A DNA stretch of 63,741 nt, counting the filler, from Globobulimina sp. (taxonomy: Eukaryota), in NCBI GenBank assembly GCA_003354225.1. It is 24 parts of 24 records of this genome, joined end to end, with 100 filler letters (N's around TTAATTAATTAA, not from the genome) between each part and the next. Parts side by side here need not be neighbours in the genome. Positions count along the whole stretch, not along the records: positions 37,255 to 39,814 come from PIVH01005984.1; 23 more parts are not named here. One strand, given 5' to 3'. Of this stretch, positions 24,378-61,263 are shown piece after piece. Below the pieces are notes generated by a model. The model saw only the letters and a program-made list of their open reading frames with translations. It made no database searches and was not told the DNA's origin. The position numbers and the translations under genes were made by a program. Each line of letters opens with the position of its first letter. The stretch's first letter is position 1.

Positions 24378-26514
24378 ATGTCCACGAACCAGGTTATAAC
24401 TAATTATACTCCTCCACAACATGACCACCCACCCCCTCACCACACTACACAGTCCACGAAATTAAAAGTATTGCAACAATCTTTCGTCAAAGCAGACAAA
24501 GACGGTGACAGTTTGTTAAACAAAGAAGAATTCAAAGAATTTGTCGAAATCGGATACCAAAAAGTTATACACACACAACGCAAACCATACGCATCCAACA
24601 AATACACACATAAACGACTCAACATACACAGCAATGTCCACCTGGAATGTACGTCAATTTATGCAACCATTTCCACCGCGATCCCGATATAGGAATAGAT
24701 TGGAACACAGCGCGAACAGTTTGGCTCCAAGCCCAAAGTGGCTCGGCCAGATCCAAAACGCCCCAACCACCCAAACAACAAAACGGCATCGCCCAAACCT
24801 CCAATAACATAAAACAAGCCTTCATCCAATGCGACAAAGACGGCGACGGCCTCCTCAACAAACAAGAATTCCATCAATTCGTCAAAGTCGGCTTTAAAAA
24901 GGTATAATATATACATAAACATACCCGAATTTGCGAATATTAAATAAAATAACTATTAAAACACAGCCATCAGTGCCTAATGGAATGTACGAACAGGTTT
25001 GCGGCCATTTTAAGAAGGACCCTTCGATCGGCATTGACTGGTTAAGTGCCTTTGCGTTATGGAAGCAATCCAATCCAAATGCGGGTACAACCAAAGCAAA
25101 CAAGAAAAGTGCGAGCAACAACAAAGCCACCACCCCGCCGCCAAAGAAAAATTTGAAAAAACCGCCCAATTTACATCGACTGCAAACGGTACAGACCCTC
25201 ACTTCGAGCAAATCGGGCAAATCACCCAAAGGCAAACTACCTCCGGTCGGGCAACTATCGCCCACCAAATCCACCGGACAGTTATACGCCAAACACCAAA
25301 ACCGGGAATCTTACAGCGGCTCTGGCTCTGCTTTGACCGAAAGGAATTTGCGTTTAGTAATGTTTCCCTATCCTTGCACTCAAAGTATCGTAGTATCCAC
25401 AGCTTCAGTTTGCAAACTCAAATACATTCATAATACACAGGAGCATTGGAGAAAGGCAACGGATATTCCAACAAATCGCTGCAAGACGACGAGCAATCGG
25501 TGGAAAGTGACCGCAGTTTCCGGTCTCAAAACCGCCGGCTTCGGCGCGCCGGCTCCACTTCGCGGGCCAATGCCAGTTTTGATGACGGTGTGGATGCCAC
25601 GCAAATGGTGGTGCAAATGATGGAGACCAAAGTGAAAAACTTGCAGAGTCAGTTGCGATTAGAACGCACCAAACGAAAAAAAACGGAGGAATTGGCCCAG
25701 TCGCTGTTGACTTCAAACGAAGAGTACAAAAAACAAACGGCAGACTTGAATCAGTCGCATAGCAAAATAAAGAGCGAAAGCAAACAAATCAAGGACCAAT
25801 TACGTAAATTGAAGCAGATTGTGGACGATGACAGGAATACTATCAAACACTTGAAAGAGCAAAGGAAGGCAATCAAGGCGGAGCGAGATGAGGGCTATGG
25901 ACTGTTGTCGAAGATTGAGAAGGAGCACGCGATTATGGTTAAAAAAGAGAAGCAAAAACATAAGGAACAAATGGAGAAATTAAGTGCGGGCTTTTTGCAG
26001 AGTTTGGGCGCCGAGCCAGGCAAAGATGTCACCACTGTCATTAAGGAATTGAAGGAGGAAAATATTGATCTAAACAGGTTAATTTATATATGATTATTTG
26101 CACGATTTTGCAGTTTGAAACTGACACATAATTTGAATGGAAACTAAATTATATTTTGTATACAAATATTTTTCAGTTTCAAACTGGAAAATGTACACTA
26201 TTTTGAGTTTGAAACTGAAATCAAAATTTTGTATGCACATATTTTTCCGTTTCAAACTGATCAAAATTGAATGTACACAGACGAGTGAACGAATTGGCAG
26301 CTACTTTGGCGCGAAAATCTGAGTCGTTGCTCCACGCCTTATCGGCAGTGGACAATTTGGCTATGATTGACGAGAAAAACCAGTTAAACGAATTAATCAA
26401 CGAAGTACAGGCACCGTCGGGTCACATCAGCACGACGAGCAAAGACAAAATGAGGAATAAGTTCAAAGAGTTGAATCAGAGGCGTAAAAGCATAACGTTT
26501 AAGAAAATGAAGAG
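24378..26514 (+). CDS. Tandem EF-hand + coiled-coil protein, 3'-truncated; introns 24564-24631, 24902-24966, 25352-25440, 26078-26280
   Basis: EF loops DKDGDSLLNKEEF and DKDGDGLLNKQEF; four GT..CAG introns join the ORF pieces in frame. Confidence 0.8.
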
Positions 26515-37154: not shown

Positions 37155-37255
37155 NNNNNNNNNNNNNNNNNNNNNNNNNNNNNNNNNNNNNNNNNNNNTT
37201 AATTAATTAANNNNNNNNNNNNNNNNNNNNNNNNNNNNNNNNNNNNNNNNNNNNT

Positions 37256-37373
37256 TTAATGTCGGGTATTTAATGTTGACATGAAAAAAGCTTTGTGGAT
37301 TTATTTTTTTTGCTCCACACTACTGTTTCACAAGTAAGAAAACTCCACAATTCTGTTCCGCAAAAAATGTGCC
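37256..37373. repeat. Conserved 118-bp module, copy A (homolog at 47309-47426)
   Basis: Ungapped alignment, 89/118 identical by hand count. Confidence 0.85.
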
Positions 37374-37558
37374 AGGTGATTGGGACATTAGATTTACATT
37401 AGGTGGCCGACAACACGTCACCTCTAGCCATTAATTATTCATATTTTATCATTATTTTGCTGCTGGAATGATGGCAGATTGTAACTGGAGAGACACTCCA
37501 TGGTCTCGCTCTGCTAAACGTGTTTTATTAGATTGATTTATGTTTTTTATTGCATAAA

Positions 37559-37627
37559 TCTCACGTAGCTCAATTGGTAGAGCACTGTTTTATGCATGGA
37601 ATCCATGTTCAAATCCTGGCGTGAGAT
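37559..37627 (+). tRNA. Degenerate tRNA-like gene (pseudo-tRNA or SINE-like Pol III cassette); anticodon not assignable
   Basis: Acceptor TCTCACG/CGTGAGA; D-arm GCTC-AATTGGTA-GAGC; T-loop TTCAAAT with 4/5-bp stem; anticodon arm short and wobbly. Confidence 0.7.
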
Positions 37628-38131
37628 ATTGGCGGGATGGCGCATTAATACAGGTTTGTTTATATTTTTGTTGTTAAAATTATGGAAAAGCATTATAAAT
37701 TATATAAACAGAAATATCATTATATCATTAAAATGGAATTTTTTATGGTAAACAACATATTTCATATCGATACATTTCTTATGTTATATTTTTGCAAGGA
37801 TATATGTTATATTTTTTGCGGACGAGCCTGCGAGTTCGCTACTTATTTACACTCCTCCTCCCTCCTCCTCCTCCTCCTCCTGTCAAAAGAAAACAACAAA
37901 AAACATCATGGCTGGCTGAAATATATTTTGGATATCAATATTTTGGACTTTTTTTGGTTCCAAAATGTTTCTGGATTTAGGATTTTTGTTTGTTTGTTTG
38001 TTTGTTTGGTTTTGTGTGGTTTACGAGGTGAACCCACTTGGTCGACGGGCTGAGGTTTGGTTTGTTTGGTTTACGAGTGCAAAAAAGAACAATAATTATA
38101 TTTAAAGAACAATAATTATATTTCATTTGTT

Positions 38132-38476
38132 TCATTCGTCTTTGTCGTCTGATGACGATGATGAGAAATTATATTTGGGCGAATGTACAGCATGGCTTGA
38201 TTGGCTTTTTGGACTGTACCACCGTGGAGAAGCTTTTGGTTGCTTTCGTGATGACCAACGACTGCTCGATGATGATTCACAAGGCGATTTTACAGAAAAT
38301 TCATCGCGTACTGTTTCAAGTGTGGAAATTACCTTTTTTAAATCTGCTAAAGCACTGAGAAGTTCTGATGTAATTTCTGGAGTTGGTCGACCCGTAAAGT
38401 TGCGATCTGCGTTTAATAACATTCGTATGTGAAATATTTCTTTTTGTAATAGCATTCGTATGTCTTGTAGATCCAT
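38132..38476 (-). CDS. Small hypothetical protein (helical N-terminus, Ser/Pro/Lys-rich tail)
   Basis: 114-aa ATG-initiated intronless ORF flanked by simple repeats. Confidence 0.45.
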   Translation of the reverse strand: MDLQDIRMLLQKEIFHIRMLLNADRNFTGRPTPEITSELLSALADLKKVISTLETVRDEFSVKSPCESSSSSRWSSRKQPKASPRWYSPKSQSSHAVHSPKYNFSSSSSDDKDE

Positions 38477-38478
38477 AA

Positions 38479-38590
38479 TTGATTGTATGTAATTGAGTGA
38501 GTGATTGTATTGTATGTATTTGAGTGAGATTGATTGTATGTATTTGATTTATGAGTGATTTATAAGTGATTTATGAGTGATTTATATAAC
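38479..38590. repeat. Degenerate TGAGTGATT/TGTATGTA short-repeat tract upstream of the 114-aa ORF
   Basis: Multiple GAGTGATT and TTGTATGTA units visible. Confidence 0.7.
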
Positions 38591-39476
38591 TCATAATCAT
38601 AAATTTTGGATGCAGCTGATTGCAGTTGATTATATATATGGATTATATATTTTCAAATCTCTTGTTGGTGTGAGTCAAAACAAAAACTCGTCCGCTACTT
38701 ACGGGCTTCCCACACCGTAAACACTTTATTGTGAATGTTTATTTGTTTTTTGTAATATGTGGTATGGAGTGCTTATATTCTGTAATATAAAAAAATGAAA
38801 ATACTTATTGAACTGATTGCATTTTTGAGACCTGTTTGATAAGTTTTTAAAAAAATCAGTACTTATCGGAAAGCCCTAGTTAGTTTTGGGTTTTTGACGT
38901 GCATTATGGTTGGGATTGGTTGAGTTGAAGTTGTTAAGGAATTGTGTTATCCACGGGTGTGATACTCTCTTCTTTAGAATTTTTCTAATTGAATGAGATG
39001 TGTTATCCTTGCACTGAAGTTTATTATCAAAAGTCCATATGGTTTATTGTATGGTCACCTTCCTGGCAGTTCCTGCAACGATAGGTGGTTGGTAGGTTTA
39101 TCGTTGGTGATCGCCAGGAAGTAATCAAAGACACGCAGGATCAAAACATTATGCATTTGCATTGGGATGGATTGTCAGTCCGTGTTGCTTTTCTATCATA
39201 ACTTTTATATTTGAAGTGTGTTTGATGTCTTTGTAAGCTACTGGTGATGCCCGAAATTTGGCAGCAGTCATAGCCTCGTTTGTGACAGGGTGTTTTTTTG
39301 TTGTTAAGTTTGAATTTTGTCCCACTACTATTAAAAAAAAAAAAACAAGTTAGTCACTTATTTAGATCTATTATAATCAATGGCGGTTCAATTTGATACA
39401 AATGTTTCTTTAAACACACATTCGTCACACAATATGGACATAATACAAAAACAAAAAACATTGGTCATTTGATACT

Positions 39477-39814
39477 TTATGCAGTTTTTTTCGTAGTATC
39501 ATCAACATCCAAATTGCGTATCAACAACGTAACACCCCCAGTAACGCACAATTCTTTCTGTTGATTAATTCCAGCTATTGCGCATTTAACAAATTTCTTT
39601 CTCCCCAATACTTTCTTGACAGTGACTATACCGTTCAAATCATCATTGATATAAACAGGCAGTCGAAACCTTATATTCATATCAAACGCAATTGCGCCGG
39701 GGAAATGTGCTCCGATGGCAGCTGAAAATATTGACGCAGAAAACATGCCATGTATTATTGCGCCATCAAAGCCTTGCGCTTTGGCCATTGTGTCGTCATT
39801 GACATCATGCAATG
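39477..39814 (-). CDS. MaoC-like (hot-dog fold) dehydratase, 5'-truncated
   Basis: LHDVND..AKAQGFDGAIIHGMF..FPGAI..IRFRLPVYIND. Confidence 0.85.
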
Positions 39815-45233: not shown

Positions 45234-45272
45234 AATAATCTGTAAAAAACTGTAAATTCAAAGAGTTTACAG
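45234..45272. repeat. 39-bp exact terminal direct repeat, left copy (right copy 47754-47792)
   Basis: AATAATCTGTAAAAAACTGTAAATTCAAAGAGTTTACAG occurs at both contig ends. Confidence 0.97.
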
Positions 45273-45359
45273 TAAAAACAGTAATTTCAAACTGAAAAGC
45301 AAAAAGTTAAATGTTACCTTTAACATTTTATTATTAACCTATTTTCCTTCCACAATATC
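45234..45359. mobile_element. Right half of 211-bp MITE (TIR 45316-45351, TSD ACAATATC 45352-45359)
   Basis: TIR is a 34/36 reverse-complement match to 47661-47696. Confidence 0.85.
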
Positions 45360-47029
45360 CTTTTCTTTTTATATCAGTTAAATAAAAATGTGCTGTTGAT
45401 CTATCAAATCACCCTCCAATCCATGTCCATGTACAAGGTCATCATCATATTAATTCCAATCCAAATCATATTCTTTCTTTGTTTATACTAATTTTCATAA
45501 TCATTGACGTTAATGTTTTATAGGATCCAAATACTTTTGGGATTTTGGAACTCTGTTTTCTGTTTATCAGCAACGAATTTGTTACCCTATATCGTTTTTG
45601 ACACCCTGCAATTCATTTGATTTTGAAAATTAGTTTAATTGTATTTGGTGGTTGCTTATTGTTTAAGTTTCTGGTGTAATTCCTTTTCTGCCGACTTTTC
45701 GAACTGAACGAAGAAATGAGATGTGTTCCAAAAATTCAGTACTAATCTGAGAGCCCTAGGTTTGCTCCATTTTCATTTCTGTGTATCTCAACGAAACAAA
45801 ACAGTTTGAACGCAGTTGTATATATCAGATTGTTTCCACAACACTAAAATTGTGACTGTTTTTTTAGCTGTTTGTTGTTGACAGGATTAGCTATAGTGTA
45901 TATTTAGGAGTTGAATTTCTCTTATTTTAAAAATAACTTCAAAAAACAGTTTATTTGTCAACCGTAAATTCAGTAAAGAAGACGTTATAAATAGTAAGTT
46001 GACACAACGCGACCACAAAAGACAACGAACAACAGTGATAAACAATGAAATGGATTTTATTATTTTTATGTTGGGTAACCGCAACCGCAATAAAATATAA
46101 CAACGCAACCGCAATAATAATAATAACATGGCGATTAGATGCTGATATAATTAAAGCCAATGATTGCGAGTATATTTGCAATGGTACTATTCATAACCTA
46201 TAATATGTTTTCAATGGTACTATTTTCCAATTTTACCAATTTAAACTCTTCCTATCATTTCTATCAAATATTTTTATTTCATTTTTGTTTTTGTCCTTTT
46301 TACTTTTTAATATCGTATTTATTCCATGTTGCATTTAGTGTTGCTGTTAAAAATATCATTTTACAATATAAATTATTTAAATTGGTGGATATTTTTATTT
46401 AAAGACTCAATCAAAAGATTTCCTTTTTTCTCTTTTCTATATACATTATATATTTACTCACGTGTATTTACTATACCCATTATTATCCCCCGCGACTGTA
46501 TTATTTTTTTAATTATTTATGCATCAGCTATGTGTTATTATATGTGTATGTTTCCATGCCATATTTAATAGATCCCTTGTGTGATTGTAATGACGTGAAT
46601 TTTTGAATTTTTGAATGCATGCATCCTAACTTCTGGGTCCAAAACAGTGGTCTGCCGTTGTTCCGCCGTGGTTTGTTGTCACACCGTTGTTTGCTGTAAA
46701 GCTGGGATATGGATCACAAATCACCAATACTATCATCTGTATCAACCTGACCAATTGACTATGTCCAACTAAGTATTTTTCGAGACCGTTACATTTAATG
46801 TCTCCTTTACAGTCCAATGTCTTTTATATTGGCGATCCTAAATATGATTTTTACGAGTGAATTTCGTTTAAAAGTATCGACGAAGAAACAGAAATCATAT
46901 TTGGGACAATCTAAAATCGACCCTTCCCGATTTACTTTTTTCAAGAATCGACTTTTTTTGAAAATCAATTACAAAGCATTGGGGAGTCATATGGAAGATG
47001 TGGATTATGTTTATGAAGAAGATTATAAT

Positions 47030-47110
47030 ATCCACCTAGCGCAATTGGCAGAGCATTGGTTTGAATGGATTGCAAACCAAATGGATGTAGGTTCGAATCC
47101 AACGGTGATG
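47030..47110 (+). tRNA. Degenerate tRNA-like gene with enlarged anticodon arm (possibly Phe-GAA-derived with intron-like insert)
   Basis: TAGCGCAATTGGCAGAGC A-box/D-arm; TTGGTTTG/CAAACCAA 8-bp stem; GGTTCGAATCC B-box; imperfect acceptor and T stems. Confidence 0.65.
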
Positions 47111-47290
47111 AGATGCAGCGAGAAAAAGAAGCAATGCCGTAGGCAATTTCTTTTACTGTTTCTGTTCCTTGTCATTTTGCCGTTGGTGACCCACACGTGG
47201 TGACCCAGTTGCTTTTGCGTTGGTGAGGATAACACTGTGTTGGACTGTGGTGGTTCAACTGTACCAAATAGCGGAACCGATGTTGGCTCC

Positions 47291-47426
47291 ATGCTCGACA
47301 TTGGGCAATTAATGTCGGGCATTTAATGTTACCATGCAGACAGTTTTGCGGAAAAGTTTTTAGACTGCCGCAAATCTGTTTCACAACTACAAAAGCTCCA
47401 CACTTATGTTCCGCAAAAAAGGTGCC
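47291..47426. repeat. Hairpin (47291-47322) plus conserved module, copy B (47309-47426)
   Basis: ATGCTCGACATT-8nt-AATGTCGGGCAT; TTTGCGG..CCGCAAA; four YCRCA boxes. Confidence 0.85.
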
Positions 47427-47652
47427 GAATTTTGAAAATTATAAGAATTATCTTTATTCACATTTTGGTGGTGGAAATTATGATCAAATGTATATGGAAA
47501 TGGTGATTTTTCATCACACAACATCATAGAACATGATTATATGCTTTATTTTGCGTTTTAAGCTCATTTTAATCAAACTTAATATCCAAACTTAATTCCA
47601 AGCATAGTTTTGTTGATCCGACAATTAACTGTCAGATCTTCTCCTTGCACAA

Positions 47653-47792
47653 ACAATATCGGAAGGAAAATAAGTTAATAATAAAATGTTAATGGTTCCC
47701 GATGAAACACAACCTTTAAGAATTCAATTTTGACTTTCAATGTTTTTATTTTGAATAATCTGTAAAAAACTGTAAATTCAAAGAGTTTACAG
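47653..47792. mobile_element. Left half of 211-bp MITE (TSD ACAATATC 47653-47660, TIR 47661-47696), continuing across the contig junction
   Basis: GGAAGGAAAATAAGTTAATAATAAAATGTTAATGGT; same 8-bp flank on both sides. Confidence 0.85.
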
Positions 47793-61184: not shown

Positions 61185-61263
61185 GATCCTCACTGGTGTG
61201 GTGTGCAGACTTCAAATCTGTAGGTGTATAACAACACAGTGGTTCGATTCCACCTTCTGCGCG
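61185..61263 (+). tRNA. tRNA-Sec: Eukaryotic selenocysteine tRNA (anticodon TCA at 61212-61214); first ~8 nt cut off by the contig end
   Basis: GATCCTCACTGGTGTGGTG-TGCAGA CTTCAAA TCTGTA-long variable arm GTGT..ACAC-GTGG TTCGATT CCAC-CTTCTGCGC-G; 6-bp anticodon stem, 4-bp T stem and G discriminator, colinear with vertebrate tRNA-Sec. Confidence 0.93.

Follow-up and report, generated by a model that had tools for sequence, protein, structure and literature searches.

We identified a stretch of 118 bases, shared by two contigs, that on balance appears to belong to a non-coding repeat family of many copies: each contig would carry a diverged member, and the stretch would be their visible overlap. 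The genome concerned is eukaryotic, nuclear and rich in repeats. The shared stretch, here called the module, most likely comes from the interior or the subterminal region of a dispersed repeat that is non-coding and unclassified. Its two copies, A and B, align without gaps at an offset of 10053 and form the sole strong match between different contigs in the window (blastn, E 1.9e-21). A sequence-only reading of this DNA had reported a gapless 118-bp alignment at this offset with 89 identical positions, and alignment, blastn and a repeat search with find_repeats bear this out. Further copies, for which it had proposed a search, were not found in the window: nhmmer, with a profile of copies A and B and with the flanks of B, and blastn returned none beyond these two.

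The window, by which we mean the whole stretch of DNA analysed, is 63,741 bases long and consists of 24 contigs of 2557–2562 bases, sorted by length and joined by spacers of the form N / TTAATTAATTAA / N. The G+C content of the contigs ranges from 29 to 44%. Long open reading frames (ORFs) in the window match the Pfam domains DEAD-box helicase, CAP-Gly, tubulin cofactor D, SPRY, RRM, TRAF zinc finger, P450, MIB/HERC2 and MaoC, and because these are eukaryotic nuclear domains the window represents a fragmented eukaryotic nuclear assembly. Copy A lies on contig A (37255–39814) and copy B on contig B, and the features of both are collected in Table 1. Elsewhere in the window, the 3' part of a selenocysteine tRNA is found at 61185–61254 (Rfam tRNA-Sec, 51 bits, model positions 9–83 of 91), cut by the start of its own contig. 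Another contig carries a 91-base internal duplication in a coding-looking region (24475–24565 and 24813–24903, 71% identical), whose translation by eye is DKDGDG-like and would suggest EF-hand repeats.

The case for a repeat family comes largely from public sequencing data. Logan contigs from four runs (X1, X2, X3 and X6) were aligned on contig A. X1 is the likely DNA run of the source organism and has the behaviour expected of one; its records reach 98 kb, and the MaoC end of contig A is spanned by an 8-kb X1 contig of depth 10.7. Summed X1 depth is 1056 and 1550 in the bins on the module (37255–37340 and 37341–37426), compared with 14.5 and 10.7 in single-copy bins, each spanned by one long, identical contig; summed depth of Logan contigs does not equal copy number and serves here only as a sign of many-fold excess. 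Part of the X1 depth could stem from B-type copies that match only the better-conserved ends of the module. A third copy is present among the matches listed, in X1 record 1 (1159 bases, depth 5.8), which matches 37272–37373 with six differences and no gaps (94% identical over 102 bases) and has flanks unlike those of A. Also among the matches listed are two X1 records of a variant form that match from 37339 onwards and are preceded by a 30-letter stretch. This stretch resembles another of the 30-base units described below, not unit 1 of A, and the units therefore vary between copies. Taken together, the excess depth, the third copy and the variant indicate a repeat family, and a further sign of many copies is that 2 of the 24 contigs, which were selected by length alone, carry the module. 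The earlier proposal of an undescribed element family is thus upheld as far as a multi-copy sequence with structural variants is concerned. In X2, X3 and X6 the module bins are almost without cover, which by the nature of the method is no evidence on expression.

The 118-base extent of the match is not biological. On the left the match stops because contig A ends there, and it stops at 37373 because contig A changes to another repeat, R, at 37374. The limits of what had been described as a 118-bp module are thus set by a contig break and by a junction with R, and give no support for a self-contained module. The match ends in ...AAAAAAKGTGCC, beyond which the flanks of A and B are dissimilar, and blastn and nhmmer within the window detect no conservation between the two contigs downstream of the module. 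A shared terminus at 37373, as X1 record 1 might suggest, was considered and rejected: the alignment of this record used A as the reference, and because A passes into R at this position, the stop of the record there is no independent evidence of a terminus.

From left to right, contig A is composed of the module, a truncated left part of R, a segment of 1328 bases (37552–38879), the rest of R with its A-run, and a MaoC fragment. The 1328-base segment is absent from other copies of R, in which 37551 or 37529 is joined to 38880 with about 10–33 other letters between. These joints are found in at least one X1, at least one X2 and at least one X6 contig. In addition, X2, X3 and X6 contigs match A rightwards from 37374 and carry other sequence to the left, as loose ends. 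The nested repeats around the module in A, seen in the joints of R and in the loose ends before 37374, count in favour of the repeat reading. R itself is very deep in X2, X3 and X6, which bear three organism labels, and has about 2–3 times the single-copy depth in X1; in appearance it is a family of retroposon-like or of highly expressed non-coding transcripts. Besides a tRNA-like sequence, the 1328-base segment contains simple repeats and a unique stretch with a weak AATF-Che1-like frame (38135–38548, minus strand). The MaoC-like dehydratase fragment (39480–39812, minus strand) runs off the end of contig A, and runs that bear the labels of two other organisms contain close variants of it (about 95–98% identical).

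Degenerate tRNA-like sequences had been noted about 200 bp from both copies of the module. Rfam recovers both, one 185 bases downstream of the module in A and one 198 bases upstream in B. ARAGORN with default settings calls no tRNA for either sequence, and relaxed settings gave only noise. The tRNA-like sequence of A is multi-copy and keeps its acceptor, D and T arms, and its anticodon arm is truncated. It opens the segment that other copies of R lack, and its link with the module in A is therefore coincidental; it is nested within R and structurally unconnected with the module. The idea that the module travels with a tRNA cassette accordingly fails in A, and tRNA proximity as a feature of the module applies, at most, to B.

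Table 1. Coordinates of the module copies, their internal features and their surroundings (positions along the whole window)
Feature	Position	Strand	Remarks
Module, copy A	37256..37373	+	left side cut by contig break (37255); right side bounded by junction with repeat R
Inverted box, A (TGTGGA)	37294..37299	+	complementary to TCCACA at 37314 and 37344
Two tandem 30-base units, A	37313..37372	+	19/30 alike; two YCRCA boxes per unit
Repeat R, left part	37374..37551	+	other R copies continue 5' of 37374 with different sequence
tRNA-like sequence, A	37559..37627	+	Rfam tRNA, 40.9 bits; at start of 1328-base segment
Repeat R, right part	38880..39345	+	ends near 39330, followed by A13 at 39333–39345
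Contig B	45234..47792	+	first and last 39 bases identical; no Pfam-matching ORFs
Decayed tRNA-like sequence, B	47030..47110	+	25.3 bits, below the Rfam gathering score of 29
12-pair hairpin, B	47291..47322	+	arms 47291–47302 and 47311–47322; one T.G pair; 8-base loop
14-base unit x1.9 (GGGCAATTAATGTC)	47303..47329	+	overlaps hairpin loop and 3' arm
Module, copy B	47309..47426	+	ungapped; 89/118 identical to copy A
Inverted box, B (TTTGCGG)	47345..47351	+	complementary to CCGCAAA at 47368 and 47411
Two tandem 30-base units, B	47366..47425	+	14/30 alike; counterparts of the units of A

The module is built of short repeated boxes, as had been proposed, and contains tandem units of 14 and 30 bases. 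The motif YCRCA is found at offsets 60, 73, 90 and 103 in both copies, which confirms four boxes with a spacing of 13/17/13. The spacing arises because there are two tandem 30-base units, each with two YCRCA boxes; the unit has the form CTCCACA-N4-TGTTYCRCAA followed by a spacer. The strict spacing had been taken as the sign of a selected binding array, and the tandem units account for it. The 14-base duplication of B makes up the left block of the module and is also present in copy A, from 37256. At the left edge of copy B lies the 12-pair hairpin that the sequence-only reading had described. The module's first conserved block is formed by the 3' arm of this hairpin, and the first base of contig A falls, as had been noted, inside the position of its loop.

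Identity between the copies is distributed unevenly, with 21 of 22 positions identical at offsets 1–22, 24 of 45 at 23–67 and 44 of 51 at 68–118. The proposed pattern of conserved boxes and diverged spacers is upheld only in part: mismatch density is uneven (variance p about 0.01), but the longest identical run, of 14 bases, is as expected for 29 random mismatches in 118 positions (permutation p 0.39). Given only two full copies, box conservation and recent common descent are not distinguishable.

The inverted box had been said to co-vary with its partner, in a compensatory change. Both of the pairings in question, TGTGGA with TCCACA and TTTGCGG with CCGCAAA, are present. However, each copy offers the inverted box two sites to pair with, equally good ones in A, and the partner is not unique. 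The inverted box and box a show one box variant in A and the alternative variant in B. Both variants are also present elsewhere in each copy, and the pairing partner of the inverted box is therefore ambiguous. The change thus amounts to one correlated event, in which one box variant took the place of another, and unequal exchange between units is a further way in which it can arise. The folding of the module is no better than that of shuffled sequence: single-strand z-scores are +0.91 (A) and -0.89 (B), and a value of -1.96 is obtained once the hairpin is added.

Arrays of subterminal motifs are found in non-autonomous DNA transposons such as Ac/Ds and En/Spm. The module would resemble the subterminal regions of these elements in being non-coding, multi-copy and nested among repeats, and in what may be the same kind of layout, with a short motif that recurs in both orientations within about 100 bases, and with short hairpin-forming repeats. 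We infer that the module family may be mobile and non-autonomous, either as a complete element or as a piece of such an element. Its YCCRCAA boxes, four direct and one inverted, would together with the hairpin make up the type of subterminal array that is bound by a mobilising protein, and the boxes possibly bind the mobilising protein of a non-autonomous mobile element. The uneven divergence, with conserved flanks and a decayed, A+T-rich middle, may reflect use by a protein or, more simply, an unequal exchange among the boxes. We take the tRNA-like sequence next to the module in A to be a nested, unrelated insertion. Against the mobile-element reading, and unlike in Ac/Ds and En/Spm, no transposase lies nearby and no target duplication is readable for the module; the right-end 20-mer also has no inverted partner in the 64-kb window (up to three mismatches, which recover only the two known sites). 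A non-autonomous copy would lack a transposase gene in any case.

A check for an accompanying Rep, recombinase or transposase gene had been proposed, and none is found on contigs A or B. Pfam searches (E up to 0.1) of 22 ORFs, 8 of contig A and 14 of contig B (the latter of 60 amino acids and longer, with one of 59 included), returned only the MaoC fragment and the weak AATF-like match, both on A, together with two sub-threshold rows. Exact-pattern scans yielded no match to TTAATGTCGGGNATTTAATGTT in metagenome contigs and none to TGTTCCGCAAAAAANGTGCC in viral contigs. The pattern CTCCACANNNNTGTTCCGCAAAA gave three matches in metagenomes and seven in prokaryote genomes, which we rejected as chance, the similarity being confined to the pattern in all ten. 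A translated search for other copies with the minus-strand ORF of B returned no candidates, and the plus-strand ORF of B gave four matches among 1.84 billion representatives. The best of these was rejected as a chance match of 20–22 residues repeated some 24 times in a tandem-repeat protein; the other three also appear, from their sequences, to be tandem-repeat proteins and are taken as the same artefact. No relatives were detected in the metagenome, viral and prokaryote contigs, the plasmids and phages, or the two protein collections searched.

Contig B calls for separate consideration. It is the sole contig among the 24 with identical ends (39 bases, 45234–45272 and 47754–47792), which gives it a period of 2520 bases. 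A MITE-like foldback of 211 bases spans these ends (47661–47792 plus 45273–45351). Its arms of 36 bases, 34 of them matching (47661–47696 and 45316–45351), enclose 139 bases, and it is flanked by an 8-base direct repeat, ACAATATC, at 47653–47660 and 45352–45359 only when B is closed. Such a target duplication is sensible only if the ends of B are joined, and the closure is therefore real. Contig B is a real 2520-base circle or tandem unit and not an assembly artefact; circle and tandem array are not told apart by the present sequence data.

The main rival to the dispersed repeat, and the sole reading of wider interest, assigns the module to this 2.5-kb unit, as a small circular DNA or homogenised tandem array whose direct repeats and hairpin serve its replication or recombination, with A as a dispersed or integrated fragment. 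We consider this unlikely. Beyond the identical ends and the duplication around the foldback, its attraction lies in direct repeats of iteron type (2 x 14 and 2 x 30 bases) that adjoin the 12-pair hairpin, and the high X1 depth on the best-conserved parts of the module would fit a high-copy unit of the B type. However, B carries neither a Rep nor any other recognisable gene and has no blastn matches in plasmid or phage collections, and the third copy, with its low depth and its flanks unlike those of A, looks dispersed. A hairpin adjoining short direct repeats, on a contig that may be circular, recalls Helitron and Replitron (HUH) ends and iteron-plus-hairpin Rep origins (10.1101/2022.12.15.520654). 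In contrast to these systems, neither contig A nor B has a Rep, and about 100 bases separate the hairpin from the right limit at 47426, whereas a Helitron-type end has its hairpin within a few bases of the 3' terminus. The arrayed tRNA genes of Entamoeba offer another comparison; each unit there is reported to hold up to five tRNA genes (PMC2652664). Contig B is similar in that it closes on itself and could be tandem, belongs to an A+T-rich, protist-like genome, and combines tRNA-type sequence with short tandem repeats in non-coding DNA. It differs from these arrays in measuring 2.5 kb and in having one tRNA-like sequence, which scores below the Rfam threshold and is missed by ARAGORN. We regard it as doubtful that contig B represents circular DNA of 2.5 kb, without genes and in high copy number, or else a homogenised tandem array, with the module as a putative replication or recombination site and A as a chromosomal integration.

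The tRNA-like sequence of B raises the question of whether it is the head of a tRNA-derived SINE (about 47030–47426, roughly 400 bases) whose 3' region would be the module, with contig A starting inside another copy. The head has a D-arm/A-box-like stretch and, in the T arm, GGTTCGAATCC, which we take to fit the B-box consensus. It lies about 200 bases upstream of a multi-copy sequence, with which it would make up a unit of typical SINE length, and a head is possible on the unassembled left side of A. However, runs of T stop RNA polymerase III, and on the sense strand there are T4 runs at 47151, 47175 and 47213, between head and module, a T4 at 47344 and a T5 at 47357 within the module of B, and a T8 at 37304 within that of A. 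Runs of T4 to T8 before and within the module would stop this polymerase, and a SINE is therefore disfavoured. Unlike tRNA-derived SINEs, the module is also followed by no poly(A), A-rich or simple-repeat tail at 37373 or 47426, and the tRNA-like sequence near A belongs to another nested insertion. The left flank of B between head and module (47111–47308) has no other matches in the window, and the shared TAGCnCAATTGGnAGAGCA is presumably ordinary tRNA D-arm sequence. On this evidence a SINE is improbable. We judge it distinctly improbable that the module is a functional element of single-locus type, such as a small non-coding RNA gene or a promoter or enhancer array under selection upstream of paralogous transcription units. 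Its uneven conservation with two well-kept flanks would suit such an element, and a compensated stem could underlie the correlated switch of the inverted box and of box a. However, an Rfam search of both contigs at E up to 10 places no family on the module beyond chance level (the sole row is a miRNA model at E 8 over copy A, with none over B). The folding scores and the lack of conservation downstream of the module give it no support, and the multi-copy depth and structural variants fit a repeat better. Finally, both contigs are short, A+T-rich and laden with repeats, and the junction at 37373/37374 is bridged by no Logan contig piece among those listed, so that one might suspect chance similarity or an assembly artefact. 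The E-value within the window and the 94% identical copy on an independent X1 contig make this very improbable.

As the probable part of an unclassified dispersed repeat, the module is mostly of value for annotation, in that it marks a repeat family in a poorly assembled eukaryotic genome. It helps to explain the contig breaks there, and it is to be masked and not read as regulatory or tRNA-linked. The one lead of wider interest is the self-closing 2520-base unit of contig B, which could exist as a circle outside the chromosomes or as a long-period tandem array that includes tRNA-derived sequence. On the doubtful reading of B as a high-copy circle or homogenised array, it would occur in a free-living eukaryote and carry a decayed tRNA gene, and the array would be comparable to the tRNA arrays of Entamoeba.
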